A stretch of DNA of 64,000 nucleotides, taken from positions 447-64,446 of the forward strand of contig CAZKAD010000003.1 of NCBI GenBank assembly GCA_964550845.1, read 5' to 3'. The notes below the pieces were generated by a model that worked only from the letters and a program-made list of their open reading frames with translations, did not search any database and was not told the DNA's origin. This document shows positions 1,741 through 63,074 of the stretch, in pieces; position 1 is the first letter of the stretch, and the number at the start of each line of letters is the position of its first letter. The stretch is from an uncultured Gammaproteobacteria bacterium. GTDB lineage: Bacteria > Patescibacteriota > Patescibacteriia > Magasanikbacterales > UBA922. Position numbers and translations under genes: made by a program.

Positions 1741-2277
1741 ATGGGATCATCGACAAAGAAACGACAGAGTAAAAACACGGAGAGGAAGTCGAGACGAAAA
1801 CGGACTTCAGGCCGAAAAAAGAAAAGTAAGCTTCGAAGTCCTTCACATCGAAAAAGGACAAAGAGCAAGCTTCGAAGTCCTTCACATCGAAAAAGGACAA
1901 AGAGCAAGCTTCGAAGTCCTTCACATCGAAAAAGGTCTTCGTATGGAAAAGCATTTGCAATAGTTAAGTTCGAACTATTCGACGAAAGTACTCAGCTCAA
2001 ATATCCTCCACAAGGAGATGAAATTCGAAAGTGGTACGATCAATTATTTGCTAAAATATCACCAATGTACAATGATTTGAACAAGGATGTTTATCTCCTC
2101 TCGAAAAGATGGCTAAGTGATGCTGAACTGAAGCTAACTTTTGTCACATCACTGAAAGATCAATCAGAAGTTGATACATTACTTGAACTTTTAACGGATC
2201 TTGATGATGACGGAAATTATCCAATTCGGGGAATGTTAGTCATACCAAAGGTCTTATCAATTGAATATTCATTTTGA
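1741..2277 (+). CDS. Basic repeat protein (KSKLRSPSHRKRT x3 at the N-terminus) with a C-terminal globular domain; possible DNA-binding or core protein
   Basis: ORF with a 39-nt triple repeat (1830..1935) that encodes Lys/Arg/Ser-Pro motifs. The C-terminal 100 aa are non-repetitive. Confidence 0.55.
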   Translation: MGSSTKKRQSKNTERKSRRKRTSGRKKKSKLRSPSHRKRTKSKLRSPSHRKRTKSKLRSPSHRKRSSYGKAFAIVKFELFDESTQLKYPPQGDEIRKWYDQLFAKISPMYNDLNKDVYLLSKRWLSDAELKLTFVTSLKDQSEVDTLLELLTDLDDDGNYPIRGMLVIPKVLSIEYSF

Positions 2278-2310
2278 AAAAATTTTTTCTTCTCTTCCAA
2301 AACAAAACGA

Positions 2311-2586
2311 ATGGCGAAATCAAAATCGAGATCGCGGCGATCAAAATCGCGACGATCGAAGAGTAAATCTCGATCAAAGCGATCAAAGAAGTATTCTTGC
2401 AAACGTGTCAAGCCAAAGAAGCGAAGCAAGTCGAAGAAATCGAAGCGAGCAAAGAAATCAAAGAAGGAGAAGGTTGAATCAACTCAGTCTCATTCTTTGT
2501 TGGCTAGATTGTCACGCACGAGTGCGAGCGCTGCACCTGCAGACGCGCCAATTGAATGGAAAGCAGGAGTAAATTGGGTAAAGTAA
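2311..2586 (+). CDS. Protamine-like, highly basic SR/KS/KR-rich small protein
   Basis: 91 aa, more than 60% K/R/S (SKSRSRRSKSRRSKSKSRSKRSKK...). The context among other basic proteins supports a real gene rather than a frame artefact. Confidence 0.5.
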   Translation: MAKSKSRSRRSKSRRSKSKSRSKRSKKYSCKRVKPKKRSKSKKSKRAKKSKKEKVESTQSHSLLARLSRTSASAAPADAPIEWKAGVNWVK

Positions 2587-2594
2587 AAAATTGA
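2587..2594 (+). promoter_or_regulatory. AAAATTGA octamer (Mimiviridae-type early promoter) upstream of the Skp1-like gene
   Basis: Exact octamer 66 nt upstream of the ATG at 2660. It is immediately followed by a perfect hairpin, ATCTGGGgtttCCCAGAT (2601..2618), after the stop of the preceding gene. Confidence 0.5.
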
Positions 2595-2659
2595 TTTTTT
2601 ATCTGGGGTTTCCCAGATAAAAATAACAAAATAACATAAATCTTAATCTCACAATCGAA

Positions 2660-3277
2660 ATGTCTACTGAAGAACAAAAGATCGAAACGTCTACTAACGA
2701 ACAAAAGATGGAAATTGAAGGACTTGATGCTGGAGTACAAGATGATTTCATCAAATTGAATTGTCGGGATAAAGTAATCGTTTCTGTGCATAGAAGAGCC
2801 TGTAGACTGTCTTCCTTGTTTCGAGGTTTACTCGAAACTCAGCCATGTGCGCCCGAGCATGAGGTTAAACAGATCGACTCTCATATCATGAAGCTAATTG
2901 TTGAATATCTTGAACATTATCGATACGAAGAACCGAAGATTCTGGAACCTCCATTGAAGACTCCTGATCTAAAGGATCACGCCTCGGAATGGGATTGCAA
3001 GTTTGTTGCATACGACACCCCCGAACAGATGGGAACTTTTCTGACGCTGCTCAATGCGGCAAATTTCTTGGAAATTATTTCGCTGAGAAATCTTTGCTGT
3101 GCAAAGTTCGCCACATTTCTCAAAACTAAAAATGTTGATGCATTGAAGGCATTGTTTAATGTGAAAGCCACGTTGACTCCCAAAGAAGAAAACGAAATTC
3201 GAAAGAAGTACCCCGAATACTTTGCTTGGTTGAAGTCTTCGCAAGAGACAAAAACCGAGAGTAAAGTTGACGAATAG
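2660..3277 (+). CDS. Skp1 homolog (adaptor subunit of SCF ubiquitin ligases)
   Basis: Aligns with Skp1 along its length. The N-terminal BTB/POZ-like part is ...KLNCRDKVIVSVHRRACRLSSLFRGLLE... The C-terminal F-box-binding part is EWDCKFVAYDTPEQMGTFLTLLNAANFLEIISLRNLCCAKFATFLKTKNVDALKALFNVKATLTPKEENEIRKKYPEYFAW, compared with Skp1 [54 protein letters not shown]...EEEAQVRKENQW. The true start may be Met17 (2708). Confidence 0.8.
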   Translation: MSTEEQKIETSTNEQKMEIEGLDAGVQDDFIKLNCRDKVIVSVHRRACRLSSLFRGLLETQPCAPEHEVKQIDSHIMKLIVEYLEHYRYEEPKILEPPLKTPDLKDHASEWDCKFVAYDTPEQMGTFLTLLNAANFLEIISLRNLCCAKFATFLKTKNVDALKALFNVKATLTPKEENEIRKKYPEYFAWLKSSQETKTESKVDE

Positions 3278-3392
3278 CCGAACTCATTGATGTGTGTAAA
3301 TTCGATAATAAAATGATTTTAATTCTTCTCGAAGAACTAAAAATAATACGTACTACTTACTTAAAATAATCTTCAGATGAGAAAGTAAAGTT

Positions 3393-3806
3393 ATGCTAAC
3401 TTTTATTTTTATTCGAAGGATCAATATGTACCATTTTCTTAAGAATTGTTTTCCTTCGTTGACACGCAAAACATACAATTACACTGTCCGATCTCCAAGC
3501 TTTCAAGGATGGGTGATTGGAAAACATCAAAATATTGATGTCTGTTGCTGTGCCATATTCCGTAAAGGACCAAAAATAAAAATGGGCTTATTTGCGGTGC
3601 TTCCACACTATCAAAACAAAGGTTTTGGGAGAGAAATGTACAAATATCTCTGTAATCAATATCATTCTTTCCAATGGACAACTAACACACAAAAAGCATA
3701 CAATTTTTGGATCAAATGCGGAGCCATATTAATTGATACTTACATTATGGATGGAGTTAAATACCATCTGTTCAAGAACGCGCCAGTCGAAGAAAAAAAG
3801 AAATAA
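3393..3806 (+). CDS. Small GNAT-family acetyltransferase-like protein
   Basis: LPHYQNKGFGREMYKYL resembles GNAT motif A (Q/R-x-x-G-x-G/A). Confidence 0.4.
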   Translation: MLTFIFIRRINMYHFLKNCFPSLTRKTYNYTVRSPSFQGWVIGKHQNIDVCCCAIFRKGPKIKMGLFAVLPHYQNKGFGREMYKYLCNQYHSFQWTTNTQKAYNFWIKCGAILIDTYIMDGVKYHLFKNAPVEEKKK

Positions 3807-3892
3807 TTTCCTTTGGGAAATTATTAATTAAACGTCCTTGAAGGACTTTTAAGCGTCCTCGAGAAGGACTTTTAAACGTTCTCGAAAAGAAC
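3805..3892. terminator. Array of 3'-end hairpins shared by the convergent genes 3393..3806 and 3896..4123
   Basis: AATTTCCtttGGGAAATT overlaps the TAA stop. It is followed by TTAAACGTCCttgaaGGAC, GCGTCCtcgagaaGGAC and ACGTTCtcgaaaaGAAC. Confidence 0.6.
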
Positions 3893-3895
3893 TCT

Positions 3896-4123
3896 TTAAA
3901 AATATTTTTCAACCTTATCCTGCATGCTGTCAGGCACAAAAAGATGGTATCCTCCATAGAGAACTCCTAGAGAACCTCCAATAATCATGACGGTATGAAG
4001 GAAAGTTAGAATATTCATTTGAGTACTGGCAACTTGTTGACCATTTCGGCATTTTCGTTCCGAGTCAAGAGCCAATGAGGCGTAGACAAGAATAAAAGCA
4101 GCGACAATAAAAACTGCAAGCAT
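3896..4123 (-). CDS. Small membrane protein with two predicted TM helices
   Basis: 75-aa ORF with two hydrophobic stretches (AVFIVAAFILVYASLAL; VMIIGGSLGVLYGGY). It is convergent with 3393..3806 and shares the terminator hairpins. Confidence 0.4.
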   Translation of the reverse strand: MLAVFIVAAFILVYASLALDSERKCRNGQQVASTQMNILTFLHTVMIIGGSLGVLYGGYHLFVPDSMQDKVEKYF

Positions 4124-4159
4124 TTTCCTTTGGAAGGAAGAAAAAAGAATTTTCTTTTT

Positions 4160-4687
4160 TCAGGGAATGATTGGCTCCGAGACACAATAGACATACCCGT
4201 TATTGAACAAATTTCCATTGGTGGTGAGAGAAAGGGTTTGCATACTGCCATTCAAAAAGAGAGAAATTTTACGCTGAACGAGTGTAAGCTTAATCTTCGG
4301 ATTTCGTGTTGGTAAAATAACTTGCTGGGAAAATAAGTCATCAGGTCCCCGAACCAAGTCGAAAATATGAGCCCCAATAAACTGTGTTGCTTCGGCTCGA
4401 TCAAGACTAAGCAACATTTTTTGAACATCTTTCGGAAGTGAATCGTCCGGTACAACCAGTAAAGTCACTTTTGCTTTCGGATCATTGAGAAGATCTGGAA
4501 AATGTGTTTTTTCAACAAGAGTTTTGTAGATGGAAAAATTTTTATCTTGAAGAGCACTGTAAATTGTCCCCGGTTGAGGAGTCCAAGCAAGATAAGGATT
4601 TTTTGCAAGTGCTCGATCAAAACGAAGTTCACCTACACTGGGAAACTCTTTCGACCATTCTACGTTATACCCGCTGGTGACTGACAT
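4160..4687 (-). CDS. Fasciclin (FAS1)-like domain protein
   Basis: KVTLLVVPDDSLPKDVQKMLLSLDRAEATQFIGAHIF...NGYVYCVSEPIIP matches the FAS1 pattern TVFAPTNEAF..LP......IL.YHVV...NGVIHVID.VL.P. Confidence 0.45.
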   Translation of the reverse strand: MSVTSGYNVEWSKEFPSVGELRFDRALAKNPYLAWTPQPGTIYSALQDKNFSIYKTLVEKTHFPDLLNDPKAKVTLLVVPDDSLPKDVQKMLLSLDRAEATQFIGAHIFDLVRGPDDLFSQQVILPTRNPKIKLTLVQRKISLFLNGSMQTLSLTTNGNLFNNGYVYCVSEPIIP

Positions 4688-4741
4688 CTTTTACAGAAAA
4701 AGATTTTATTTTTCTACGAATAAAAGTTTGACCCCTTCTAA

Positions 4742-5959
4742 ATGTCTTCTTTTTGGCTTGAGGATCCAACAGAATTGTTCCGAAATTTGGAGCTTCTTCC
4801 AAATCCAGGGAGCAATATCGCGTCAAAGTTGAATGCGCTTACGAGATTGGCAGTTGTAGTCGGACTTGGAATTTATCTTCTTAATAAGGACTCAAAAGAG
4901 TCGAGCTCTCTCTGTATAATCACATTTGGTATTCTTCTTTTGTTCATCGTAATCACTGCTTATTATTCAAAGAGTAAGGAAGGTTTCCGACCTCCTCCGA
5001 TGCCAGTAGTTGAAAAGCCTACGCCAACATATCCTCTATCTTCACCAACCGTCAACCTCTCTGGATTGCAAGCAACCCCATTGTGGTATGATCCAAAATA
5101 CGGAGCTGGACCAAAAGAATATCGAGACCCTCCAGTAATTCCACCAAATCCGGCTGATGCTAAATTTTGGGGAGGATTTCAATCGAGGATTAATGAACCT
5201 CGACCACAAATTATTCACTCGAATGTTGAAAGTGTTCTGTTCAAAAATGAACAACCTTATTCACAGCGAATTAGCCTTCCCTCTCGACAGAGAAAAGGAT
5301 TTAAAATTCTTGGTGGACCTCATCAAGACGAACCTGAAATTCCATTTGTTATTGATGACCAGGGACTAAACCCCCCGAATTACACTCGTATTCGAGGATA
5401 TTCGATGCATGATCCGAGTGTTCCTCCTTATTCGAATCTTGAGCTATTATCACCAAGTCAATCTTTTGTTCCGGGAGCTCAAGTCCCTTCGGGACGGTCT
5501 CAACTTCATGCTTATGATGACTTTGCAAATGTTTGGTCTGCCGGAAACACTGACTTTTTGACCTCTAAGATGGCTATTCATCGTACTCATCCCGCGGTTG
5601 ATACTGGAGAATTCCGTCAAGCTTCCACAATTGGTCTGGCAGATTCAATGTACAATCCAACATTTAAACCGTTTGACCCGGCAAGCACTTATTTTAAGAC
5701 CAGTAATAACCCTTATGACGGTTTGTTCATTGGACGAAGTCTAATTGAACACGTTGATATGCGAGCTCCAAATGGTGAAGTTCTTCCCGGTTATTTGAGA
5801 ATGGGATTTACCAGCGACGACTTTATGGATGAAGCGACAAGTCGTCAAGAAGCAGATGAATTGTACTTTCGAGAAGCAATGGTTGCCGATGTTCGTGCTC
5901 GGATGAATGAGCGAGAGCAAGAATTCCGAATGGCACCTGTAATGAATCATTTCATGTAA
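4742..5959 (+). CDS. Pro-rich membrane protein (hypothetical)
   Basis: 405-aa ORF with N-terminal TM segments (LAVVVGLGIYLL; IITFGILLLFIVITAYY) followed by a long Pro-rich region. Confidence 0.6.
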   Translation: MSSFWLEDPTELFRNLELLPNPGSNIASKLNALTRLAVVVGLGIYLLNKDSKESSSLCIITFGILLLFIVITAYYSKSKEGFRPPPMPVVEKPTPTYPLSSPTVNLSGLQATPLWYDPKYGAGPKEYRDPPVIPPNPADAKFWGGFQSRINEPRPQIIHSNVESVLFKNEQPYSQRISLPSRQRKGFKILGGPHQDEPEIPFVIDDQGLNPPNYTRIRGYSMHDPSVPPYSNLELLSPSQSFVPGAQVPSGRSQLHAYDDFANVWSAGNTDFLTSKMAIHRTHPAVDTGEFRQASTIGLADSMYNPTFKPFDPASTYFKTSNNPYDGLFIGRSLIEHVDMRAPNGEVLPGYLRMGFTSDDFMDEATSRQEADELYFREAMVADVRARMNEREQEFRMAPVMNHFM

Positions 5960-6047
5960 AGTGAGAAGTGTAAAGTCCTAAGTAAAAGAAGCATAAAAAT
6001 TGACTCTTTTCTTCTTTTGAAGGAAGAAAAGATTTAATTAATACCCG

Positions 6048-6782
6048 ATGTCACATTCGCCCCAAAAAGGAAATAATCACTGGTCACCAGAATTTGAACG
6101 ATCTCTCCGAGTCATACATGATTATTGTGCTGGATATAGTTGGATGTATTCGCGAGATATTCAAGTTTACACAAAATATTCTTATTATTTGTCAGGTGCA
6201 ATTTTCTTGGTAAGTACTTTATCAAGTTTACTCAATACAATTCAAACTTCTTTTTCAATTGACGATAAAATTTTTGATGCAATCATCGTGATCGTCTCGT
6301 GGTTAACTGTAACATTTTATACCGCATCATACATTAAAGATTATTCAGCCGTGATTAAAGAATTGAACAATCACAAAGCAGAATATGTCGATTTAGCCAA
6401 TACGATTGATCGGCAACTTCAACTTCCACCCGAAGAAAGAGAAAATGTTGAAGATTTTCATCGATGGATTTCGAGTTATTATCAATTACTTGGAAGATGG
6501 TCAGTCGAAATTCTACCTCGGACAGTAGAACAATATCGCGTTCATGCCCAAAAAGAAAATGTTCCCTTCCCGGACGAATTGATCGATTCCTCGAGTAAGA
6601 GATTGACTCAAAAGGAAAATGAAAAGAAGATTGATTTGTTGATTGACAAAGCACTTGCGAATCAAGAACAGAAAGAAGAAAAGAAAGAAGAAAAGAAAGG
6701 GACCCTTCGTGATAAAGATAAAAAAGTTAACCTTTATCAGATTCAATATGAACTCGAACGACTTCGAGGGCACGCCGATTGA
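6048..6782 (+). CDS. Hypothetical membrane protein with a K/E-rich C-terminus
   Basis: 244-aa ORF with TM segments (GAIFLVSTLSSLL; AIIVIVSWLTVTFY). Confidence 0.55.
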   Translation: MSHSPQKGNNHWSPEFERSLRVIHDYCAGYSWMYSRDIQVYTKYSYYLSGAIFLVSTLSSLLNTIQTSFSIDDKIFDAIIVIVSWLTVTFYTASYIKDYSAVIKELNNHKAEYVDLANTIDRQLQLPPEERENVEDFHRWISSYYQLLGRWSVEILPRTVEQYRVHAQKENVPFPDELIDSSSKRLTQKENEKKIDLLIDKALANQEQKEEKKEEKKGTLRDKDKKVNLYQIQYELERLRGHAD

Positions 6783-6886
6783 CAAAGATTGAAATTTTAA
6801 TCCATTATTTTGAAAGTATAGATAAAATTTGTTTAGTATATATACTAAATAAATTAACTGCCTCAAAGATTGAATATTGATTAAGG

Positions 6887-6894
6887 AAAATTGA
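6887..6894 (+). promoter_or_regulatory. AAAATTGA octamer upstream of the cap-modifying enzyme gene
   Basis: Exact octamer 34 nt upstream of the ATG at 6928. Confidence 0.5.
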
Positions 6895-6927
6895 TCCTTT
6901 TTTTCTTTCAATCGGAAAGGAAAGCGA

Positions 6928-9900
6928 ATGGCTGTCTTCTTCGCAAAAAGTCGGGACCCATTTTCAAACTTTTATCCGGTCTCATTTACTGTCGATGATT
7001 TGAAATACTCGAGTTCGGAACAGTATTTTATGGCCTCGAAAGCGAGATTCTTTAAAGATGTTGAAGCGGAGGACCAGATTATGGAAGCGGAATCTCCGAA
7101 AGAACAAAGAGAACTTGGACGTTCAGTCAAAAAGTTTGATCCAAGAGAATGGGATCGAGTTAAATTTAAAATCATGAAACAAGCCCTGTTGATTAAATTT
7201 CAACTTCCAAAGATGAAAAAGTTCCTTGTTGAGAGTCAACGAAAAGTTTTAATTGAAGCTGCACCTTGGGACGCGATTTGGGGAATTGGAATGGATGCTG
7301 ATAAAGCTGTGAATACACCCTTTCGTGAATGGGGAAAGAATGGACTTGGATTCTTATTGATGGAAGTTCGAGATTTTCTCCAAGGTAATTGGATTCAAGA
7401 AGACTTTGGTGTCTCAATGATTGGAAATTTCTATATCGGTGCACATCCAACTGAAGACCAAGCAAAGTTTCTTTTGGGAAAAGGAGTGAATCTATTTGTC
7501 TCCCTTGAGGAAAATCCAAGATATTTATCAGTTGTTGGTCAAGCATCGTCAAAAGTTTTTGCTCTTCCTACAGGAGGTATTCGAAATGATCAAGAGACAC
7601 TTGAATTTCTCGGTTGGTTACGAGATCAATATTTTCTCGGAAAAATCATTTATCTCCATAGTCGAAGAGGAATTGGAAGAACCGGATTGATTGCCAGTTT
7701 ATTTCTGAACTTGTTTCTCGGATATCAACCAAGTGATGCGTTGGATAAAGTTCGAAAATCTATTCATAGTCGAACTAATTTTAACCAGTCCTTCGGGACG
7801 TTTAAGCTTAAATTTATGCCTATTCCAGAAACTGCTTCACAAATAACTCAATTCACTCGTCTTGCCGACGGTGATAAAACCGATATTGATATGTCTGCTT
7901 ATACTCTTGAAGCAGAGAAAGCATGGATGACAAAACTTTCTGAAATTGAGCAAGACGACTTGATGACACGGGAAGATGTCGAATTGTATCAACAAATTGT
8001 ATCTCCTTCCTCTTCTTCAAAGGAAGTGAAAAAGGAAGATGAAATTAAACGTCTTGAAAAGTCTCTTAATCTTCCTGTTGGTGCAATTGAAGATGAGCAA
8101 GAAAATGACCCTCTTGCGGGTGCACTCGCAGAACTTGAACTTCGAAAGAGTGAAGAGAAGGAAGAACTTCGAAAGAGTGAAGAGAAGGAAGAACTTCGAA
8201 AGAGTGAAGAGAAGGACCCATTTGAAGCTGAACTTGAAGCGTTTGAAAATGAGGGTAAAAAAGATCCGCTCGAAGCTGAACTCGAGGCATTTGAGAATGA
8301 AGTAATCGAGCCTGACATCAAAACTTTCCTTGAAGAAGAGGCTAAAGTTGAAGTTAAACAACGAACTTCATTGACCGATCGAGATCTCGAAGAACAATTT
8401 CGACGTTTCGCTAATCAAGAACTTCATCTTCAAGCCGAGGAAGGTACATTTGTTCTTCAATCTGTCTTGAATGATATTTTCAATCGTTTTCTCGAACAAC
8501 AAAATATTCAAATTATCGATGTCGATAAGTTTGAACAAATCGCAATTCCCCTAATTGGAGAACCAGAGAAAATCGAATCAAAAATTCCCGAGTATGATGG
8601 AGATAAATATATTGAATCAAAAGTGTCAAAGTTGAATACTGGTTATCGAGTCAACTTTCGACTTCTTCCCGATGCAAATATTCGAATTACAAAAGTAAAA
8701 TCGCCAAAGCGATCACAAAAGAAGAAATCGAAAAGTGAAACTTTGTCTGAGAAAAAAGATGTTTCTCAATTGAGTCAAATTGAACCACCGAAAGAAGAGG
8801 TGAAAGAAGTGAAGATCGAGAAAAAACTTTCGTCATTTTTGTCCCATTTCTTCCCTGGCGATATTACCTTCATTCAACCGAATATCAATTTCACCGAAGA
8901 AACTTTGCATTATATGTCTCCAATGAGTAAAGCCGACAAACTCGCCGCATTACTTAAGACATATCCTCGTGCACAATTAGTTGTCGATGTTTTTGCTGGT
9001 ATTGGAGGCAATACACTTGGATTTGCTCGTGCAGGATTGCGTGTAGTCGCATATGAACGAGATCCGGAACGATTTAAAATGTTGAGAAATAACGTCCTTC
9101 ATTATCGGTTTGAGAAACAAGTGACGACGATTCGAGGAGAATTTAACCCCGGAAAAGATCTCGATATTATTCGAACTATTCAAAAGATTGAAGCAGACAA
9201 AGTAGTCTTCTTCTTTGATCCTCCATGGCTTCCATCTTTTGTCCAAAACTTTGACAAGTCACAATACATCTTAACTGGAATTACTCTTGCCGGTCAACTA
9301 CTTGAAGACATTGCTAAGAAAACTTTGCAGGAATATGGAGGATCGATATTTCATTTGCCTCCCGGTTACTCACTCAATTTGGCTGGAAGAATTGTTGATG
9401 ATAAATCTGATAACAAAGCGAGATTGATTTACTTTTTTGGCGATCAAATTCAAGCCAATATTGCCAAAGATTACAAACTGCAGATCAATTATGCAACTGA
9501 ATTTCCACGTGAACAATCCGAGGTCAAATATTCTCAAAATGAGTTAGTTGAACAACTGAAAGAAGTTGAACAACAAAAAGTGGAAGCTAAATTGTATCAA
9601 CCTCCGGTCAAAACAGTCTCGGTGGTCTTTCAAACTTTTCTGAATAAAAGCTTTCCTCGACGATCATATCAACATGAACCTTTCCATCCGAAAGCGGTTC
9701 ATAGTGGACAGCGAAAATTACTCTTGTCCGAGATTGAATTCTTGACTCGAGTTCTCTCAAAGGAAAAAACACTCGGTAAAGGCGGATCTTATACTATGCT
9801 TTACGTTGGAGCCGCGCCAGGAATTCATATTCCTTTGCTTGCAAATAAGTTTCCTGAAGTCAAGTTTATTTTGTATGATCCGGCCAAATTTGATATTGCT

Positions 9901-10542
9901 CCATCATCTCAGATCGAAATTCATCGAGAACTTTTCACTGATGAAAAAGTCGAAATGTACAAGAAGACTGAAAATTTATTGTTTGTGAGTGATATTCGAT
10001 CGACGCCGAAACAATTCGATCCAAATCAATCCGGCTTTGATTCGAGTTTTGAACAAGAGGTGATTTTTAACATGGAGCAACAAAAGAAATGGGTGACGGA
10101 ACTTCAACCACTCAGAAGTCTACTTAAATTTCGTCTTCCTTACAATGATCCTGAAAACCCTCGAGATGAACAGGAAACATTTAAATATCTTGATGGTATT
10201 CTTTTTTTCCAAGCTTATCCTCCAGAGCAATCAGGAGAAACTCGGCTTGAAGTTGGACTTCCGTTGAAAGAGACTGGTTATTTTCTTGCCCAGTATGAAC
10301 AGCAAATGTTTTATTTTAATACTCGATATCGGATTCAATCCTTCTCTCATTATTCACAATTTTACGGATGGTCTTATGATACTCTGAGAGAATACTTTAT
10401 TCTTCAAAACTATTACAAATTTCGTGGGATTATCGACAGTGATAAGAAGATCGAATATGATTTTCAAGATCACGACCGGATGGCTCACGGCCCGGAAAAG
10501 AAGATTTTTAACATTCTTCGTAACGCGGCAAAATACGGATAA
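6928..10542 (+). CDS. Multidomain RNA cap-modifying protein: NADAR (YbiA-like) domain, dual-specificity phosphatase / Mce1-like RNA triphosphatase-like domain with the catalytic Cys replaced by Ser, an acidic coiled-coil linker, a Tgs1-like cap guanine-N2 methyltransferase and a poxvirus VP39-like cap 2'-O-methyltransferase
   Basis: NADAR: FSNFYP...SSEQYFMASKARFF...LGR...W....IMKQALLIKFQ...LIEAAPWDAIWGIGMD...LGFLLMEVRDFL, which follows the YbiA consensus. PTP-like: IYLHSRRGIGRTGL, a Cx5R P-loop in which the Cys is Ser (agt at the catalytic position). Tgs1-like: VVDVFAGIGGNTLGFARAGLRVVAYERDP...FFFDPPW. VP39-like: HSGQRKLLLSEIEFLT...GGSYTMLYVGAAPGIHI...KFILYDP, compared with vaccinia VP39 FEGQKKLL..EF / VVYIGSAPGTHI. 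No guanylyltransferase KxDG motif was seen. Confidence 0.85.
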   Translation: MAVFFAKSRDPFSNFYPVSFTVDDLKYSSSEQYFMASKARFFKDVEAEDQIMEAESPKEQRELGRSVKKFDPREWDRVKFKIMKQALLIKFQLPKMKKFLVESQRKVLIEAAPWDAIWGIGMDADKAVNTPFREWGKNGLGFLLMEVRDFLQGNWIQEDFGVSMIGNFYIGAHPTEDQAKFLLGKGVNLFVSLEENPRYLSVVGQASSKVFALPTGGIRNDQETLEFLGWLRDQYFLGKIIYLHSRRGIGRTGLIASLFLNLFLGYQPSDALDKVRKSIHSRTNFNQSFGTFKLKFMPIPETASQITQFTRLADGDKTDIDMSAYTLEAEKAWMTKLSEIEQDDLMTREDVELYQQIVSPSSSSKEVKKEDEIKRLEKSLNLPVGAIEDEQENDPLAGALAELELRKSEEKEELRKSEEKEELRKSEEKDPFEAELEAFENEGKKDPLEAELEAFENEVIEPDIKTFLEEEAKVEVKQRTSLTDRDLEEQFRRFANQELHLQAEEGTFVLQSVLNDIFNRFLEQQNIQIIDVDKFEQIAIPLIGEPEKIESKIPEYDGDKYIESKVSKLNTGYRVNFRLLPDANIRITKVKSPKRSQKKKSKSETLSEKKDVSQLSQIEPPKEEVKEVKIEKKLSSFLSHFFPGDITFIQPNINFTEETLHYMSPMSKADKLAALLKTYPRAQLVVDVFAGIGGNTLGFARAGLRVVAYERDPERFKMLRNNVLHYRFEKQVTTIRGEFNPGKDLDIIRTIQKIEADKVVFFFDPPWLPSFVQNFDKSQYILTGITLAGQLLEDIAKKTLQEYGGSIFHLPPGYSLNLAGRIVDDKSDNKARLIYFFGDQIQANIAKDYKLQINYATEFPREQSEVKYSQNELVEQLKEVEQQKVEAKLYQPPVKTVSVVFQTFLNKSFPRRSYQHEPFHPKAVHSGQRKLLLSEIEFLTRVLSKEKTLGKGGSYTMLYVGAAPGIHIPLLANKFPEVKFILYDPAKFDIAPSSQIEIHRELFTDEKVEMYKKTENLLFVSDIRSTPKQFDPNQSGFDSSFEQEVIFNMEQQKKWVTELQPLRSLLKFRLPYNDPENPRDEQETFKYLDGILFFQAYPPEQSGETRLEVGLPLKETGYFLAQYEQQMFYFNTRYRIQSFSHYSQFYGWSYDTLREYFILQNYYKFRGIIDSDKKIEYDFQDHDRMAHGPEKKIFNILRNAAKYG

Positions 10543-10547
10543 CTTTC

Positions 10548-10566
10548 TGTTCCCCTCGGGGAAAAG
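10548..10566. terminator. 3'-end hairpin GTTCCCCtcGGGGAAAAG directly after the stop of 6928..10542
   Basis: Perfect inverted repeat starting 6 nt after the TAA. The same TTCCC(C)..GGGGAAAAG design recurs at 40875..40894 and 12977..13003. Confidence 0.55.
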
Positions 10567-10572
10567 AAAAGA

Positions 10573-11247
10573 TTAATATTCTGTTTTCATCCACTTAAAA
10601 TTTTGAATCAACAAAAGCAAACGTGGGTCATACAATTCTTGTGTCAAGAAAAAAGACCAAGGATTTTTGTGAATAACATCTTTTGGAACACATTCAACGT
10701 CAGATAATCCCGCTGCAACAATCTCACATAGAGGATCATAACCACAATCAACTTTCTCTCCAATTATCCTCACAATTAATTCAAGGAGATAGTTATGATC
10801 ACAGACGATATCATCTTCTAGGCCATAGTCATGAGAACAGACACTAATTAATCCTTGAGAGTTAACTATTGCAATTTTAGCACAACGTTTTGAATCCTTT
10901 TCGATACCTGTTATACCAGAAAAAGGAAAATTTTTTGGTTCGAAATAAGACTTCTTTAACGTGTCAAAAATCCGATCATTTGGATAATTTTGTTCAATAA
11001 ACTGTTCGAACAATGGTAATTGCTCTAAAGTAAAAACTTTTTGTTCAATTCCATTCCAGATCCAATCTTCCTTCCAAAATATGTTATGGGAGAAGTAAAA
11101 GTAAAGCATTCCTTTTTCGAAAAATTTCTTATCAGTACCGAGATGAAAGAATAAATCCGGGCTATCTTTACAAGGTTGACATTTTTGTACAAATATATTT
11201 GCCGGGACTCGAAAGATTTCAATTGGGTGGAATTGAGGAATTATCAA
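10573..11247 (-). CDS. Member of the 'FLTxDLYDPRLL' family (F-box-like motif at the C-terminus)
   Basis: C-terminus ...NPWSFFLTQELYDPRLLLLIQNFKWMKTEY carries the family motif that is shared with five other ORFs in the window. Confidence 0.7.
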   Translation of the reverse strand: MIIPQFHPIEIFRVPANIFVQKCQPCKDSPDLFFHLGTDKKFFEKGMLYFYFSHNIFWKEDWIWNGIEQKVFTLEQLPLFEQFIEQNYPNDRIFDTLKKSYFEPKNFPFSGITGIEKDSKRCAKIAIVNSQGLISVCSHDYGLEDDIVCDHNYLLELIVRIIGEKVDCGYDPLCEIVAAGLSDVECVPKDVIHKNPWSFFLTQELYDPRLLLLIQNFKWMKTEY

Positions 11248-11256
11248 TGAAGGTTT

Positions 11257-11264
11257 AAAAATTG
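11257..11264 (+). promoter_or_regulatory. AAAATTGA octamer upstream of 11314..11865
   Basis: Exact octamer 50 nt upstream of the ATG. Confidence 0.45.
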
Positions 11265-11313
11265 ACTGTTCAACAAATTTTATTTGATTTAATCAATTTT
11301 AGTATTGTAATAA

Positions 11314-11865: not shown

Positions 11866-11897
11866 CATCTTTGAATTCATCTCTTGAAAAGGTGGGT

Positions 11898-11922
11898 CTT
11901 TTCATTCCTCGAAAGGAATGAA
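11898..11922. terminator. Perfect 9-bp hairpin TTTCATTCCtcgaaaGGAATGAAA between convergent genes
   Basis: Inverted repeat read directly. It lies between the stops of 11314..11865 (+) and 11942..12952 (-). Confidence 0.6.
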
Positions 11923-11941
11923 ATTTTTAGGATGTTGGTTT

Positions 11942-12952: not shown

Positions 12953-13071
12953 TCCGACGTTCTTACTAATTCAAAATTCCCCATTTCTTTTCGATGGGAA
13001 AATCAGTTTTCTCCGAAGAGATCACCGAAGATAAAAATTTTTATTCTTTTTTTCGTTTTCTATAATAGAGG

Positions 13072-13118: not shown

Positions 13119-13119
13119 T

Positions 13120-14899: not shown

Positions 14900-14957
14900 T
14901 TAATTGGCAAATTAATTTTTATTATTTTCTCAATTCTCCTTTATTCCAAATGAGAAA

Positions 14958-15755: not shown

Positions 15756-15781
15756 TGATATTTTGCTTCCGAATAAAATTT

Positions 15782-27350: not shown

Positions 27351-27857
27351 ATGTCAAAATTCTACACTGATGAACTCAGACATAAGCCGTTGGCTGAAAT
27401 CAGAGAAATTGTACGTCAGAGAAGTATGAATAATATTTTCAAGCAACTCGAAGATAAACTACTTAAATTTGAACACGATTTTCTCGATAGAAAACTTGAT
27501 GATCAAACTTATCGGTTTGATATTTCATTCGATTTTTCTGTCAATTCTCTTCAACTTGCCCGGGATGTATGTAAGCAAATACGTGCTTGGGCCAAGCAAA
27601 AAGATATTGCTATCGGGAAAATTCCAACGACCACAACTCCGCGTAAAATAAGTGTCGATTTTCAATGGAAGCTTGTTCAAAGACCAACGGGATTTTTCGT
27701 CTTGAAAAATCTCACTCTGCTTGGTCTTTCAAGTGAACAAGAGCAAAGTGTATGGACAAAATTTTTGACCCAAGAACTATATGATCCAAGACTGCTTGGA
27801 TTGATCTATTCATTTTTACATTCCACCAAAACTTCAACGTCTCAAAAAACCAATTAA
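27351..27857 (+). CDS. Member of the 'FLTxDLYDPRLL' family (F-box-like motif at the C-terminus)
   Basis: C-terminus ...LTLLGLSSEQEQSVWTKFLTQELYDPRLLGLIYSFLHS... Confidence 0.65.
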   Translation: MSKFYTDELRHKPLAEIREIVRQRSMNNIFKQLEDKLLKFEHDFLDRKLDDQTYRFDISFDFSVNSLQLARDVCKQIRAWAKQKDIAIGKIPTTTTPRKISVDFQWKLVQRPTGFFVLKNLTLLGLSSEQEQSVWTKFLTQELYDPRLLGLIYSFLHSTKTSTSQKTN

Positions 27858-30047: not shown

Positions 30048-30716
30048 TTAAATTTGCAACAAAATAATTCCGCCATTAATGAGAGATAAAATATGAGCCA
30101 CATTCACAAAATGGATCATTTCGATTTTGTGAATAGCCAAAGCGAAATTCCAAAGATAAAAAGCGAGCATAGCTAATCGTCTTGATTTTTGCATAGGTAA
30201 CTTGGGAACGATAAATGCTCGTCCTACTGCCAATCCAGCAAGCAAATAAGTTGTCATAAAGACTCGCTGAAGTCCTTCAACTTCAATTACATCAAATGAT
30301 GCCAAAATGACAAAAAAGATCATCATTCCAAAAATAATTACATCGAAAGTCATCTTGAGGAAAATTAAACCACCCACTAAATATGCCTGCCATCGATTTC
30401 CTTCAACATCAACGTCTGGTTGACGACAAAGTGGGCAGTTTTTTAAAGAAGGCTGACATTCTCTGCAAACTTTGGGATTGCATTCAGCAGTACATTTCTC
30501 ATCTCGAGAAAATTTAATTAATGCCGAGTCAAGTGGAACTCCGCAATTTCCTTTCAAACAGACAAGACACACATTTTCATCTTCGAGCTGAGAAGATTGA
30601 TTAACATCAATCTTCATTTCATTGTTTTTTTGATCGCTCAATATTTGAGGAGGTACTTCCTCGGAATTGGATGCAAAATTTTCGCTTCTTTCAACGGTGG
30701 CCAAAAGAGTTTCCAT
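30048..30716 (-). CDS. Membrane-anchored RING-like (C4C4-type) zinc-finger protein with MARCH/viral K3-like topology; candidate E3 ubiquitin ligase
   Basis: CLVCLKGNCG...CTAECNPKVCRECQPSLKNCPLC (9 Cys, no His) followed by 3-4 hydrophobic helices (LVGGLIFLKMTFDVIIFGMMIFFVILASF; LLAGLAVGRAFIV; LAMLAFYLWNFALAI; ILSLINGGIILL). Confidence 0.45.
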   Translation of the reverse strand: METLLATVERSENFASNSEEVPPQILSDQKNNEMKIDVNQSSQLEDENVCLVCLKGNCGVPLDSALIKFSRDEKCTAECNPKVCRECQPSLKNCPLCRQPDVDVEGNRWQAYLVGGLIFLKMTFDVIIFGMMIFFVILASFDVIEVEGLQRVFMTTYLLAGLAVGRAFIVPKLPMQKSRRLAMLAFYLWNFALAIHKIEMIHFVNVAHILSLINGGIILLQI

Positions 30717-51800: not shown

Positions 51801-52785
51801 TATAAAACTCTTTACGAATTTTCTTCGGAAAAAGATCTTGTAAAGTATCAACTAATTCGGAGTCGTGTTCAATCAAACATTGTAAACATTCTCGTTTATC
51901 TATTTTATTTGCACGAAGTAATATTTCGAGTTCATCTGGATGTTCGATTAAGTGTTCAGAAAATGGACATTCAAGAAAGATAAATAAATCAAGGGAGAAA
52001 TGATATCTCAATATCTTTTCCCAAAGAGGATGACTCTTCGAAAAATATTCAAAGAAAATTTCAATCTGAAAACCACCAAAAGAATTGAAGGAAGTAAACC
52101 TGGTTAAAGACAAATTCCATCTTTGATTAATGTCATCAAGAATTTGATCTCCTGGGAAATATTTCTTTATCATTTGATACCATCGGTGATAATCAATAAA
52201 AGTAAAGTTTAGCGATTGCAAAAAAAGTAGGAAAATTTTCGCCTCGATACTAACTCCATATTCCAAATAAACTGTTCCAGCTTGATGAATATCTTCGGCT
52301 AGATTCATAAAAATAAATTTAATATCATCAAACGAAAGTACATCCTGTTTTCGTTTATACTTCAAGAGTAAATTAAGCAAGTGATATTTTTCTGATACAA
52401 TTACATATACTGAGTATTCGTGCAAAAGTTTAAATCCAGAAATGCAATAATTATTTACCAATGAAAAAATATAATCTATCATTTCCGGTGAAGATAAATC
52501 GATGCAATGATAACTTGTATGCAAAGGTGACCAATAAAATGCGGTTATGTCTCCGCGGATATATTTTTGTGCCGTTTTAATAAAAAGATCATCTGGGAAA
52601 TAACATATCAAACCTCTTGGATAAATGGCTTGTAATTTATCTGCTTGGGAGAGATCAACAAAATTGGTAATTAACAAAAATAATCTTGGATCATACAAAT
52701 CTTTTGTTAAAAAAGAATTCCAATTTGTCTCTCGATTAGATAAACCTGACGCAATTAATTGAATCAAACGGTCAGAAATTGACAT
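51796..52785 (-). CDS. Member of the 'FLTxDLYDPRLL' family, with the motif at the N-terminus
   Basis: N-terminus MSISDRLIQLIASGLSNRETNWNSFLTKDLYDPRLFLLITNFVDLS... Confidence 0.65.
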   Translation of the reverse strand: MSISDRLIQLIASGLSNRETNWNSFLTKDLYDPRLFLLITNFVDLSQADKLQAIYPRGLICYFPDDLFIKTAQKYIRGDITAFYWSPLHTSYHCIDLSSPEMIDYIFSLVNNYCISGFKLLHEYSVYVIVSEKYHLLNLLLKYKRKQDVLSFDDIKFIFMNLAEDIHQAGTVYLEYGVSIEAKIFLLFLQSLNFTFIDYHRWYQMIKKYFPGDQILDDINQRWNLSLTRFTSFNSFGGFQIEIFFEYFSKSHPLWEKILRYHFSLDLFIFLECPFSEHLIEHPDELEILLRANKIDKRECLQCLIEHDSELVDTLQDLFPKKIRKEFYT

Positions 52786-59809: not shown

Positions 59810-60862
59810 TTAAAAAGAGCAAATCGTTATGAGTAATCGAGGATCGTACAAATCTCGAAGCAAAAAGTCCATTAAAATGTCTTCTTGTGACAATCCAGCA
59901 CAGACTAACATGTTTAACATCTTTTGTTCCACATAGATGATTAGGTAGATATTTTTGCGGAAATTTAAAATGTCAATGTACATTCCTTCTTTTTGTTGAT
60001 CTGTCAAAAAGGTCCACTGAGGCATATTTTTTCGAATATCATTATTGATATTGAACGATGTCTTTTCATATCTATACATTGCACAATCATCAAGTACAAA
60101 AAGAGGCAAATCGATATTCGGATATTCTCGAATTGAAGTCAGTGTTTCTGGTTCTTTGTATCCGGGACATCCAATGACTGGAAGTTCGTCGAGAAATTGA
60201 ATTGACGGGAGAAAAAGGATAAATTGGAGTGCTTCAATATCATGGATAAATAATAAATAAACTTTTGTTTTAACGGCGCTCCAAAACTTTAAGGTCGTAA
60301 ATAAATTTCCATTGATTTTTTCATCTGAATCGCCTTGTATGGCTTGTTGAGAAAAAAGAGTTCGAGTGGAAGGTGTATATATTCCTCTTGTTATTTTCAT
60401 CGAAAGAGACGCGACCATTTTTTCTGATAAAATTTTTTCTGTGATCGGTCGATATTCTGTTGCACACACCCTCATCCTGACGCAAATTGGTATATTCAGT
60501 TGATCAAATAACTTCAAGATATTTGCTGGAGCCACGAGGAAAGTTTCTTTTTGATTGTTTGCATCAATCGAGATGATCCATTCTGGCGAATATTCTATCG
60601 ATTTGACTGAAATTAATTTTCTTTGAAAAATACTCTCAATTAATTTCTGAAATTCATCAATGTAAGATTCATGTGAAATCTGACTAAAAATCGAAAGAAT
60701 TAAATCGACTTCTTGATCTGAAAGTCGATTAATGATTGGATTTTCTTTCCCGAGGACGTCAAAGTTGTGGCGAACAGTACTATGATCTTCATCTATATTA
60801 ACTTTCGTTAACGCTGAACAAAAGAATTGATGAAACAAAGATAACTTTTGTCTAGAATTCAT
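59810..60862 (-). CDS. Member of the 'FLTxDLYDPRLL' family (tandem trio member A; F-box-like motif at the C-terminus)
   Basis: N-terminus MNSRQKLSLFHQFF...LSDQEVDLILSIFSQISHE. C-terminus ...LNMLVCAGLSQEDILMDFLLRDLYDPRLLITICSF. Confidence 0.7.
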   Translation of the reverse strand: MNSRQKLSLFHQFFCSALTKVNIDEDHSTVRHNFDVLGKENPIINRLSDQEVDLILSIFSQISHESYIDEFQKLIESIFQRKLISVKSIEYSPEWIISIDANNQKETFLVAPANILKLFDQLNIPICVRMRVCATEYRPITEKILSEKMVASLSMKITRGIYTPSTRTLFSQQAIQGDSDEKINGNLFTTLKFWSAVKTKVYLLFIHDIEALQFILFLPSIQFLDELPVIGCPGYKEPETLTSIREYPNIDLPLFVLDDCAMYRYEKTSFNINNDIRKNMPQWTFLTDQQKEGMYIDILNFRKNIYLIIYVEQKMLNMLVCAGLSQEDILMDFLLRDLYDPRLLITICSF

Positions 60863-60946
60863 TTATTTGTTTATTTAATTGGCACTTCTGGAGACAATTA
60901 AAATCAATTTCCTTACCTCGAGAGGTAACGAAAAATCACTGAGCAT

Positions 60947-61963
60947 TCAACAAAAAGGAAATTCTTCAAAGAAACTGTCATCTGAAAGAGCAAAACAATT
61001 AATTAAATTCAAGATGCGAGGGTCGAATAAATCCCGTGTAAGAAAGTTGTGCCAAGTTCCACCCTGAAATAAACCCGTGCAGATAATCATATTCAACATT
61101 GCTTGTTCATCACAGGTAATTAAATAGATACTGTGGTAATAGTTCTCAATATCATTCTCGGCTTCCCGTAAAGCTTCAAGATCTATCCAACTTGGAATCA
61201 AATTTCCTGCCCAAAATGAAAAGGGTTCTTCGTCATAATCAGGATTAAGATATACAAGCGGGCGGTTAACAAGAGTTTGCCGCTCGACTGATTTAATCAA
61301 ATATGATTGATCAAATGTTATTCCTCGTTTAGCAAAGATTCTCTTCAGTAATGTTGGCGAAGGTAGTTTTAGAATAGCTTCAAATGCCTCTTTACTCTGA
61401 GGCGCCAAAATATAAGTTTTGCTTTTTACAATACTCCAAAACAGTAAAGTTTCAGCGTTAGTTTCATTTAGTTTACTTTCCGAAAATACATCTTCAATTG
61501 TATTTGACCAGTTAATTTGGATAACAGGAGGCAAATCAATTTCTTCGAACAATCCATCGAGCTCTCGTAAATTGTCTTTTACTTCTTGGAAATCAAAAAA
61601 GACAGAGGTTTGAATGTTTAATTCTCGAATGATCGAATCTGCATTCAATTTGACTGGAACGTGTTTATACATATGACGTGTTTCAACACAAACATATTTT
61701 GATGATCCAAAATATCTTTGAAATCCTATAGGCTGCTTGTTGATTAATGCGTCAAGCAATAAACCGACATCATTAGAAATCGATTCTTCTCTTGAAATCA
61801 TCTTAAAGATCGAGATGATTGAAGCGACTTCTTGATCAGTCAATTGTTCAACAATTGGATGAGGTTGGAGCATATCATCGAGTTGGAAATGAGCAATCTC
61901 TTCTTCCGTTTCATACGGAAGAAAAAGATGGCAAATTGTGCTTAATTTTTGTCTGAGATTCAT
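60947..61963 (-). CDS. Member of the 'FLTxDLYDPRLL' family (tandem trio member B)
   Basis: Start set at the internal MNLRQKLSTICHLF, which is homologous to the paralog N-termini and removes the overlap. C-terminus ...LNMIICTGLFQGGTWHNFLTRDLFDPRILNLINCF... Confidence 0.7.
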   Translation of the reverse strand: MNLRQKLSTICHLFLPYETEEEIAHFQLDDMLQPHPIVEQLTDQEVASIISIFKMISREESISNDVGLLLDALINKQPIGFQRYFGSSKYVCVETRHMYKHVPVKLNADSIIRELNIQTSVFFDFQEVKDNLRELDGLFEEIDLPPVIQINWSNTIEDVFSESKLNETNAETLLFWSIVKSKTYILAPQSKEAFEAILKLPSPTLLKRIFAKRGITFDQSYLIKSVERQTLVNRPLVYLNPDYDEEPFSFWAGNLIPSWIDLEALREAENDIENYYHSIYLITCDEQAMLNMIICTGLFQGGTWHNFLTRDLFDPRILNLINCFALSDDSFFEEFPFC

Positions 61964-62012
61964 TGCAGTCCTCCAATAAAGATAAAGAGTAAAATCAATT
62001 TTGCTCTTCTTC

Positions 62013-63074
62013 TTAAATCTCACCAAAATTGCACACATTTGAAATACTAAATTGACTAATTAAAATCAAAACCCGAGGATCGTACAAATCTCGAAGAAGA
62101 AAATTACTCAACTTCCCTTCTTCAAATAAACCGAAACATACGAGATTGTGTAACAATGCGTGTTCAGTGCAAGTAATATAATAACTATTCAAGTAAAAAT
62201 GAACAACATCGGCGTAAATTTCATTATTTATCTCCTCATTTTCGGATGAAACGGGAATTTTCTTTCTCAGATTAAGATGAATGGATGAAAAATCCTTTTT
62301 GTTCTTTGTATAACAGAGATAACAGAGATAAAAGAGAAGATGATTATTATCCGGATATTGTTCGATTGCTTCGAGTGTGTCAGACTGCTCACGAATAAAC
62401 TTTTTGAGTATCTTTGGTGAAGGCAACGAGATTATCGATTCAAAAGCAATACTTGAGAGAGGCATCATTAAATAGACTTTTGATCGAAGAATGCTCCAAA
62501 AGAGTAAAATTTTTTTGTAATTCTCGAGATCAAGATCAACATTGGATGACGGAGAATGATAAACTTGAATCATTGTTGGTAGGCATATTTTATTCGATAA
62601 AATTTTTCCTCGATTAAATGTAGTTTCAAACGGATTTAAATATTTAAGACGCATGAATGTTCGAACATTTAACTGTTCTAACAGTGGACATACTTGTTGT
62701 TTTACATCAACTTCATCCTGCGCGTCAGATGTTTTGATGCTCATGTTCGTGTATTGAATACGAAAGTGATGATAGTCGGTTATTTGACATTCTTTTTTAC
62801 GAATAAGAGCTTCAATAAACAATCCGATATCTGACACATTTCCATTCTCAAAATCAATCATTTCAATCGCTTGAATAATGAGAGAAACTTCATGATCACT
62901 TAGACGTTCCAGACAATTCTCGAAAGTGGTTAAACTTCCCGGAGTACGTTTCGATTCCAGAAATTCGTCGAAACGAAAGTAATGGCCATTGTGTTTGATA
63001 CGTTGTTGAATATTCCGAGTCACATAAACTTGACAAAAAATAGCTAATTTTTGTCGCAAAGTGAAATCAGCCAT
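62013..63074 (-). CDS. Member of the 'FLTxDLYDPRLL' family (tandem trio member C)
   Basis: N-terminus MADFTLRQKLAIFCQVYV...LSDHEVSLIIQAIEMIDFE. C-terminus ...LHNLVCFGLFEEGKLSNFLLRDLYDPRVLILISQF... Confidence 0.7.
   Translation of the reverse strand: MADFTLRQKLAIFCQVYVTRNIQQRIKHNGHYFRFDEFLESKRTPGSLTTFENCLERLSDHEVSLIIQAIEMIDFENGNVSDIGLFIEALIRKKECQITDYHHFRIQYTNMSIKTSDAQDEVDVKQQVCPLLEQLNVRTFMRLKYLNPFETTFNRGKILSNKICLPTMIQVYHSPSSNVDLDLENYKKILLFWSILRSKVYLMMPLSSIAFESIISLPSPKILKKFIREQSDTLEAIEQYPDNNHLLFYLCYLCYTKNKKDFSSIHLNLRKKIPVSSENEEINNEIYADVVHFYLNSYYITCTEHALLHNLVCFGLFEEGKLSNFLLRDLYDPRVLILISQFSISNVCNFGEI

Follow-up and report, generated by a model that had tools for sequence, protein, structure and literature searches.

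A divergent viral Skp1 and an apparently undescribed terminal box that may serve as its docking module in a putative marseillevirus-like giant virus

Does a giant virus that carries its own Skp1 also carry proteins that dock onto it? The question is raised by a 64,000-nucleotide stretch of contig CAZKAD010000003.1 (assembly GCA_964550845.1; the window is the whole of this stretch), which, from its gene content, appears to belong to a marseillevirus-like member of the nucleocytoplasmic large DNA viruses. In cellular Skp1, the BTB/POZ half docks onto the cullin and the C-terminal half binds the F-box protein. An initial annotation of the window, made from the sequence alone, had read the open reading frame (ORF) 2660..3277 as a Skp1 homolog matching across both of these halves, and six other proteins as carriers of a shared module that resembles an F-box. 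We find that the ORF encodes a genuine, divergent but complete Skp1 with both halves present, and that the shared module is a box that by homology is not an F-box and may nonetheless be the docking partner of the viral Skp1.

The product of ORF 2660..3277 was compared with known proteins at the level of domains, sequence, and fold. The two Pfam profiles that the initial annotation had proposed as a check, Skp1_POZ (PF03931) and Skp1 (PF01466), both score above their curated cut-offs: 24.7 bits against 21.9 for PF03931 (residues 30-88) and 38.6 bits against 22.3 for PF01466 (residues 142-185). When all PDB sequences were searched with phmmer, 31 Skp1 sequences matched, the best being human SKP1 (expectation value E = 4.9e-11, residues 31-183), and Elongin C matched the BTB half alone (residues 28-88, E = 0.0016). 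It is the PF01466 domain that sets Skp1 apart from Elongin C and other BTB proteins. An AlphaFold2 model, built on an alignment of eight clade members, has a predicted local distance difference test (pLDDT) score of 78, which rises to about 90 or more in the core (residues 30-150) and is about 70 in the C-terminal helices (150-190), while the two termini are disordered; helices are predicted in the C-terminal half at residues 140-156, 159-165, and 174-183. In a Foldseek search of the PDB with this model, the top 50 matches listed were SKP1 chains without exception (50/50), with E of about 2e-9, a target TM score of 0.70-0.85, and 144-167 aligned columns. The Skp1 match across the BTB-like and F-box-binding halves is thus borne out by both Pfam domains, by the PDB sequences, and by the structural comparison.

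Close relatives of the viral Skp1 form about 12 clusters in database searches, every one of them environmental; the identical protein was found on a 259,314-bp NCBI contig, and further copies of the clade lie in the metagenome loci that we call L015 and L016. Throughout this clade the Skp1 core is kept, including VEYLEHY, WD..F, and the H5 helix LLxxxAANF (AANY in human SKP1), and the H5 helix of the viral protein, LLNAANFLEI, is close to its human counterpart. At the C-terminus, RKKYPEYFAWL(K/L/Q)P replaces the cellular RKENQWCEEK, with a four-residue insertion relative to cellular Skp1 in an alignment with the human and cell-like proteins. This tail (residues 181-191) is invariant across the eight aligned clade sequences at eight of its 11 positions (R181, K183, P185, Y187, F188, A189, W190, and L191), which are eight of the 33 invariant columns in the clade alignment. 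A KYPEYFAWL-type tail was also seen in the Skp1s of L015, L016, L031, and L032; cell-like Skp1s from the same metagenome scan lack it, their C-termini reading EENKWCMENL or RKENDFIKA.

Structures of SKP1 complexes show its C-terminal helix (residues 147-163) inserted against the F-box protein (PMC13237083). Because the viral tail falls in the helix by which cellular SKP1 touches F-box proteins, we regard it as the candidate partner-contact site; on this mapping, the part of the viral Skp1 that is predicted to touch a partner is both its most conserved and its most altered part. A separate feature lies at the other end of the protein, where the motif E..GLDAGV (residues 17-26, window 2708-2737) precedes the BTB fold; it is invariant in the viral clade, absent from cellular Skp1, and predicted to be helical with low confidence.

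The module shared by the other six proteins was then defined with a local hidden Markov model (HMM) built from 142 database copies. In the six-frame translation of the window, this HMM found exactly six box ORFs (E = 3e-20 to 8e-16, the next match having E = 0.04), in agreement with the six proteins that had been listed as carrying an FLTxDLYDPRLLxLIxxF module, five of them C-terminally: the box lies 0-15 residues from the C-terminus in five of the six and is N-terminal, at residues 4-43, in the remaining one, m3 (Table 1). A degenerate DNA pattern for DLYDP occurs three times in the window, against 0.02 occurrences expected by chance. The six proteins form four groups without BLAST similarity to each other, namely the paralogs m4, m5, and m6 as one group and m1, m2, and m3 as one each. 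For m5, the annotated ORF overlaps that of its upstream paralog m6 by 26 nucleotides, and nothing in the paralogs corresponds to its first 25 residues. Since the paralogs align from MNLRQKL onward and the ORF overlaps m6, the true start of m5 is probably the ATG at 61963 (MNLRQKL...), which would give a protein of about 338 residues.

The box has the consensus L..LI..GL(s..e..)W..FLTkGLYDPRLLlLI..F and spans about 45 residues. An exhaustive HMMER search of 1.84 billion representative proteins with a six-copy profile returned at least 211 clusters (50% identity) at E <= 1e-3, and 12 at E <= 1e-10. Three residues, D, P, and R, never vary over at least 150 divergent copies, and G, F, L, Y, and I are nearly invariant. 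The position of the box was determined in 146 parsed copies, counting it as C-terminal when it lay within 45 residues of the protein C-terminus: 121 boxes are C-terminal, 17 N-terminal, and eight internal, so that the box is terminal in 138 of the 146 (95%). Most family members have no Pfam domain. WD40 propellers are present in five box proteins (in P0028, the propeller spans residues 4-356 and the box 363-401), leucine-rich repeats (LRRs) in five (for example P0067), and DUF4116 repeats follow an N-terminal box in four (P0135, P0090, P0145, and P0155). With the box masked, 126 members separated into 76 groups that have no mutual BLAST similarity at E < 1e-5; the variable parts had been taken initially for unrelated domains, and they are so both in the window and in the database. 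The number of unrelated attached domains, and the occurrence of the box at either protein end, argue that it is a shuffled autonomous module and not the remnant of a protein family.

The isolated box was modelled by AlphaFold2 from a 79-sequence alignment, which gave three helices (residues 7-20, 27-33, and 39-53) with a pLDDT of 78.4 and a predicted template modelling score of 0.52. No Pfam family covers the box, and no mention of its signature strings was found in the 8 million full texts searched. To judge from its sequence, the box is a new domain family that was apparently undescribed before. Dense arrays of box genes were seen in a further virus, on contigs of GCA_013572825.1 and GCA_013573075.1 (L011 and L012), where six box genes lie within 21 kb (2134-13959), three with N-terminal and three with C-terminal boxes, and where a MORN-repeat protein and a RING protein with a zf-C3HC4_3 domain (12222-13181) stand among them; the piece read holds no Skp1.

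Is the box an F-box, as the initial annotation had suggested by likening it to the F-box and to PRANC domains? As homology, that likeness is not supported. The profiles for the F-box (PF00646), the F-box-like domain (PF12937), and PRANC (PF09372) gave no match at E <= 10 in the six window proteins, and no F-box family stands among the 25 families listed as matched by at least four of 150 database box proteins. A profile search of PDB sequences with the box returned no F-box protein. When the box was aligned with an F-box profile by hhalign, the probability was 0.9%, with 12 columns aligned; in this alignment DPR-LLxLIxxF, the last helix of the box, falls opposite LPxE-LLxxIxxL, helix 1 of the F-box, with a shift of one residue. 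The same comparison with SOCS boxes gave a probability of 0.1%, the F-box profile comprising 12 sequences and the SOCS-box profile six, which limits this test. Structural comparison gave no match to an F-box, PRANC, or SOCS box, but for a small isolated helical model this test is too weak to count for or against an F-box fold. The box has no LPxE signature, its conserved residues being G-L, W, F-L, Y-D-P-R, I, and F; its three-helix size of about 40-50 residues agrees with that of an F-box, which is a generic and not a diagnostic feature.

Other identities were tried and set aside. SOCS boxes carry a BC-box, (S/T/P)LxxxCxxx(V/I/L), and a Cul5-box, LPxP; the box has no LPxP, and the position of the small BC-box residue is occupied by I, V, or L, so that this identity was rejected together with the hhalign result. 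The PDB profile search showed a weak likeness of the first two box helices to the N-terminal end of the eukaryotic ribosomal protein uS3 (FVADGIFKAELNEFLTREL; FVADGIF..LNEFLTREL, E = 0.03) and of the box to some designed repeat proteins; both likenesses were judged to be chance. By sequence homology, then, the box is not an F-box.

We next consider the relation between the box and the viral Skp1. Box genes are present at all eight of the viral-clade Skp1 places that have about 10 kb of neighbouring DNA (8/8; Table 1), and these eight places span at least three sub-lineages. The genome of the window has at least nine box genes, six in the window and three in the locus L029, and the ratio of about 12 Skp1 clusters to at least 211 box clusters is compatible with roughly 10-20 box genes per genome. 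The scan of 2.9 million IMG/VR contigs for the Skp1 clade and for narrow and broad box patterns found neither the viral-clade Skp1 nor the box; its lone pattern match, L010, was rejected as a chance FLLRDLYDPE in a phage-like protein. The boxes carry lineage signatures: [QR]WLTKGLYDPR occurs in 11 of 11 boxes of the lineage with a histone doublet (L008, L015, L016, L031, and L032), and FL occurs at this otherwise nearly invariant site in 10 of 10 boxes of the window, L029, and L001. Helix H6 of the Skp1 differs in parallel between the box lineages, reading AAKFS or AAAFA in one and CAKFATFLK in the other. This parallel change may reflect either co-evolution of box and Skp1 or shared descent.

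We hypothesize that the box works as an F-box-like docking module for the viral Skp1. This is our best functional reading, and we put its chances at about even. Fairly good indirect evidence leads to it: a terminal box joined to WD40, LRR, or otherwise unrelated domains is the hallmark architecture of cullin-ligase substrate receptors, the box co-occurs with a viral Skp1 clade whose tail is remodelled at the contact helix, and the chlorovirus Skp1 discussed below is a precedent. The lineage signatures of box and Skp1 are only suggestive. In the mechanism that we propose, the BTB/POZ half of the viral Skp1 would dock onto the host Cul1-Rbx1 core, its C-terminal half, including the aromatic tail KYPEYFAWL, would bind the box, and the variable part of each box protein would recruit a host or viral target for ubiquitination. 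The recruiting parts would be WD40, LRR, or DUF4116 repeats in the relatives and orphan domains in the window proteins. The box would then be a functional replacement for the F-box, paired with a private viral Skp1, and not a recognisable F-box. We infer each of the three steps, that is, the binding of the box by Skp1, the binding of Cul1, and the ubiquitination of targets. A more specific form of the proposal is that a private orthogonal pair evolved in a marseillevirus-like clade, consisting of the Skp1 with its rebuilt tail and an 'LYDPRL box' on dozens of receptors per genome; this is possible, with the balance tilting somewhat toward doubt. If true, the viral receptors would plug into the host cullin core without competition from, or regulation by, host F-box proteins.

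Several observations weigh against this hypothesis. It has no detectable similarity to the F-box, PRANC, or SOCS box, and genomic context is its sole tie to Skp1. That context was read from neighbourhoods of about 10 kb, and box genes are so dense, at about one per 10 kb in the window, that their proximity to Skp1 shows presence in the same genome and nothing more; nearness of the two genes was rejected as significant evidence, since about 60% of 12-kb pieces of the window hold a box gene. The co-variation between lineages may be a single inherited event. On the side of the Skp1, the cellular loop PLPNV is not conserved and reads EVKQI in the viral clade, which may bear on the binding of cullin; the likeness of the H5 helix to the human one is indirect evidence for such binding. 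Finally, no cullin, Rbx1, E2, ubiquitin, or canonical F-box gene was found among the 58 window ORFs scanned, so that any ligase activity would depend on the presumed binding of host Cul1.

The viral Skp1 and the box may also be unconnected, an alternative that we consider unlikely. The Skp1 would then be a substitute adaptor for host F-box proteins, or a decoy that sequesters Cul1 or F-box proteins, and the box would dock elsewhere, for instance on a different adaptor of cullins, on a chaperone, or on some part of the virion or viral factory. A box without F-box similarity agrees with this alternative, and the conserved Skp1 core could still bind canonical partners, but the most conserved part of the viral protein is a non-cellular tail in the partner-contacting helix, which argues for a non-canonical partner, and no canonical F-box protein was found among the window ORFs scanned. 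Given the density of box genes, presence in one genome is expected for any two lineage-specific genes; against the alternative stands the layout of the box proteins, in that WD40 or LRR repeats with a terminal box are standard for cullin-ligase receptors.

In another alternative the box has no docking role of any kind. It would serve structure, oligomerisation, or localisation, or would be no more than the conserved terminus of a multigene family that duplicates fast, retained through recombination or because folding, or targeting to the virion or viral factory, requires it. The hydrophobic and helical character of the box, the mostly orphan parts outside it, and the tandem arrays of box genes at 59810..63074 and in L011, L015, and L029 would all suit such an element. 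The family end of a duplicating gene would not be expected on 76 unrelated domains, at either end of the protein, which speaks for an autonomous shuffled module, and the invariance of D, P, and R, with G, F, L, and Y nearly invariant, over at least 150 copies fits a specific binding surface. We hold this alternative to be distinctly improbable.

The initial annotation had also placed a multi-transmembrane RING-like protein, 30048..30716, in the proposed ligase. Its eight cysteines have the spacing C-x2-C-x22-C-x3-C-x4-C-x2-C-x6-C-x2-C and are followed by hydrophobic helices in the C-terminal half. It has no histidine, and the C3-x3-C4-x4-C5 spacing is atypical for a RING; its matches are below threshold, with E = 0.056 and 13.7 bits against a cut-off of 27 for Pfam zf-C3HC4_3, and E = 0.058 for the best PDB RING match, BIRC7. 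In Skp1-Cullin-F-box (SCF) ligases the RING subunit is Rbx1, which is small, soluble, and of the RING-H2 type, and the cullin links it with Skp1. It is extremely unlikely that 30048..30716 supplies the RING subunit to the SCF-type ligase proposed for this virus, for its RING-like eight-cysteine spacing and its location in the same window as Skp1 are set against RING matches that are all sub-threshold, C-terminal membrane helices without the Rbx1 RING-H2 pattern, the absence from the window of the linking cullin that an SCF needs, and an order of RING and transmembrane helices typical of stand-alone membrane E3s. This order is described for such ligases as the poxvirus MARCH class (PMC8695901). 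From its sequence, 30048..30716 is not an SCF component, and its layout is that of a putative membrane-anchored stand-alone E3 with a sub-threshold RING assignment. The SCF-hijacking module first proposed for this virus is thus kept in its Skp1 and its family of proteins with a shared terminal module, and loses both its F-box homology and the part given to the RING-like protein.

A different E3 was seen in the genome of the same virus, outside the window. At L029:6933-8021, a ligase of the RING-between-RING (RBR) type, with RING1, an IBR domain (29 bits with the Pfam IBR profile, whose cut-off is 24.3), and a segment resembling RING2 (CPKCQRLINKGDGCDHVRCVCGFEFWW), lies directly upstream of three tandem box genes (L029:8154-10804). 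Cellular Ariadne-type RBR ligases cooperate with cullin-RING ligases, and the adjacency of this gene to the box genes may matter.

How does the pair proposed here compare with known systems? The closest is that of the chloroviruses, where ankyrin proteins are described as having a C-terminal motif by which the PBCV-1 Skp1, A039L, binds them, with partners matched by lineage (PMC7019647). Both cases, as far as that description goes, are giant viruses with a Skp1 of their own and with proteins in which a short docking motif at one end accompanies a variable domain for protein binding. The window virus differs in being marseillevirus-like, with candidate histone-doublet and TATA-binding protein (TBP) genes on the contigs of its relatives, and in having a Skp1 from another clade, with the KYPEYFAWL tail. 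Its candidate docking element is a three-helix box of 45 residues without F-box or PRANC similarity; its variable domains are WD40, LRR, DUF4116, or orphans and not ankyrin repeats; and its family is far larger, with at least nine copies in the genome of the window. Binding is reported as demonstrated for the chlorovirus proteins, whereas for the window Skp1 and box it is inferred.

Poxviruses are described as having ANK/PRANC proteins, whose ankyrin (ANK) repeats are followed by a truncated F-box at the C-terminus that docks on the Skp1 of the host, as well as ANK/BC proteins (PMC8695901). They share with the window virus a short helical C-terminal box on repeat-containing viral proteins, which in poxviruses hijack cullin-RING ligases. 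However, poxviruses use the host Skp1 and encode none, and PRANC is detectable by Pfam as F-box-like, whereas the box is not. The cellular F-box proteins of the FBXW and FBXL classes and the SOCS-box proteins also have a three-helix box, about 40-50 residues long, that is joined to WD40 or LRR domains and docks onto the adaptor of a cullin-RING ligase; a C-terminal box with WD40 repeats has the SOCS-box layout, and an N-terminal box with repeats the F-box layout. They differ from the box described here in its lack of LPxE, in the hhalign values given above (0.9% and 0.1%), and in the lack of a structural match for its small helical model. Isolated marseilleviruses have expanded paralog families that are annotated as ordinary F-box proteins (PMC8208085), and resemble the window virus in that families of putative SCF receptors have expanded; a viral Skp1 is not reported for them, whereas the window virus has a Skp1 and a non-canonical box. 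No paper in the literature searched mentions both Skp1 and Marseilleviridae.

Table 1. Coordinates of the Skp1, box, and RING-like features, and numbers of box genes at the places with a viral-clade Skp1.
Feature	Location	Strand	Box genes	Basis
Skp1 homolog, 205 aa	2660..3277	+		Pfam, PDB phmmer, Foldseek of AlphaFold2 model
BTB/POZ half of Skp1, residues 30-88	2747..2923	+		Skp1_POZ PF03931; pLDDT > 90
C-terminal Skp1 domain, residues 142-185	3083..3214	+		Skp1 PF01466
Clade-specific Skp1 tail RKKYPEYFAWL, residues 181-191	3200..3232	+		invariant columns in alignment
Box protein m1, 178 aa	10573..11109, box 10591..10740 (C-terminal)	-		local HMM E = 3e-16; alignment
Box protein m2, 168 aa	27351..27857, box 27672..27821 (C-terminal)	+		local HMM E = 8e-18; copy modelled by AlphaFold2
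Box protein m3, 329 aa	51796..52785, box 52654..52785 (N-terminal, residues 1-44)	-		local HMM E = 3e-20; alignment
Box protein m4, 350 aa	59810..60862, box 59813..59956, up to last residue	-		local HMM E = 8e-16
Box protein m5	60947..62038, box 60986..61135 (C-terminal)	-		local HMM E = 1e-17
Box protein m6, 353 aa	62013..63074, box 62043..62192 (C-terminal)	-		local HMM E = 1.5e-17
Cys-rich (C4C4) RING-like membrane protein	30048..30716	-		sequence; sub-threshold RING matches
Box genes beside viral-clade Skp1	window		6	
Box genes beside viral-clade Skp1	L001 and L002 (near-identical stretches)		1 each (6128-7036 in L001)	
Box genes beside viral-clade Skp1	L008		3	
Box genes beside viral-clade Skp1	L015		3 in tandem	
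Box genes beside viral-clade Skp1	L016		1	
Box genes beside viral-clade Skp1	L031		4	
Box genes beside viral-clade Skp1	L032		1	

The remaining genes of the window bear on the nature of the virus. Pfam matches include a P9-type minor capsid protein, NUDIX, a dNMP kinase-HAD protein, two protein kinases, a superfamily-2 helicase, an AAA ATPase, a hybrid histidine kinase, collagen-like proteins, and the families DUF5767, DUF5832, and DUF5891. On contigs with more distant Skp1s of the clade, a 258-residue protein with histone domains (a candidate doublet) is present together with TBP. Directly upstream of the Skp1 gene, three consecutive ORFs on the + strand have extreme low-complexity charged regions: 53-1699 (548 aa) combines a long RDKDRDSRDRHRDKDRE-type Arg/Asp/Ser repeat with DUF5767, 1741-2277 (178 aa) contains KSKLRSPSHRKRT three times over, and 2311-2586 (91 aa) is nearly all Lys, Arg, and Ser.

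Several other genes were observed in passing. The 1204-residue product of 6928-10542 (+) fuses NADAR, a dual-specificity-phosphatase-like region, a Methyltransf_15 cap methyltransferase, and a VP39-like 2'-O-methyltransferase; in L001 the fusion is split in two, with one gene for the NADAR part (342 aa) and another for the methyltransferase part (945 aa). Four collagen-like repeat proteins surround a 791-residue protein with a bacterial HtrL_YibB domain (E = 8e-34) at 14162-22171 (-) and 16575-18950 (+), among them one of 721 residues (E = 4e-32 to Collagen), and this block is absent from L001, which is otherwise syntenic. The hybrid histidine kinase, 54377-56182 (+), has HisKA, HATPase_c, and receiver domains. 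A 275-residue protein with a SWIB/MDM2 domain (E = 5e-9) is encoded at 44033-44860 (-), and a complete family X DNA polymerase, with HHH_8, fingers, palm, and thumb, at 49823-50770 (+).

A paper of 2015 considered virus-encoded Skp1 unique to the chloroviruses and their close phycodnavirus relatives (PMC4602308); the Skp1 described here extends it beyond them to giant viruses of an unrelated lineage. Mimicry of the SCF by a virus that encodes its own Skp1 is already known from chloroviruses, and the docking domain proposed here is apparently undescribed. Should the box prove not to be a partner of Skp1, a whole multigene family would still be marked by this highly conserved and so far unannotated module. 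If it is the partner, it would found a new class of docking domain for cullin-RING ligases, to be set beside the F-box, the SOCS box, and PRANC, and the orthogonal pair, if true, would be useful for engineered protein degradation. The family would then supply dozens of viral substrate receptors, and their targets would show which host pathways these viruses dismantle.

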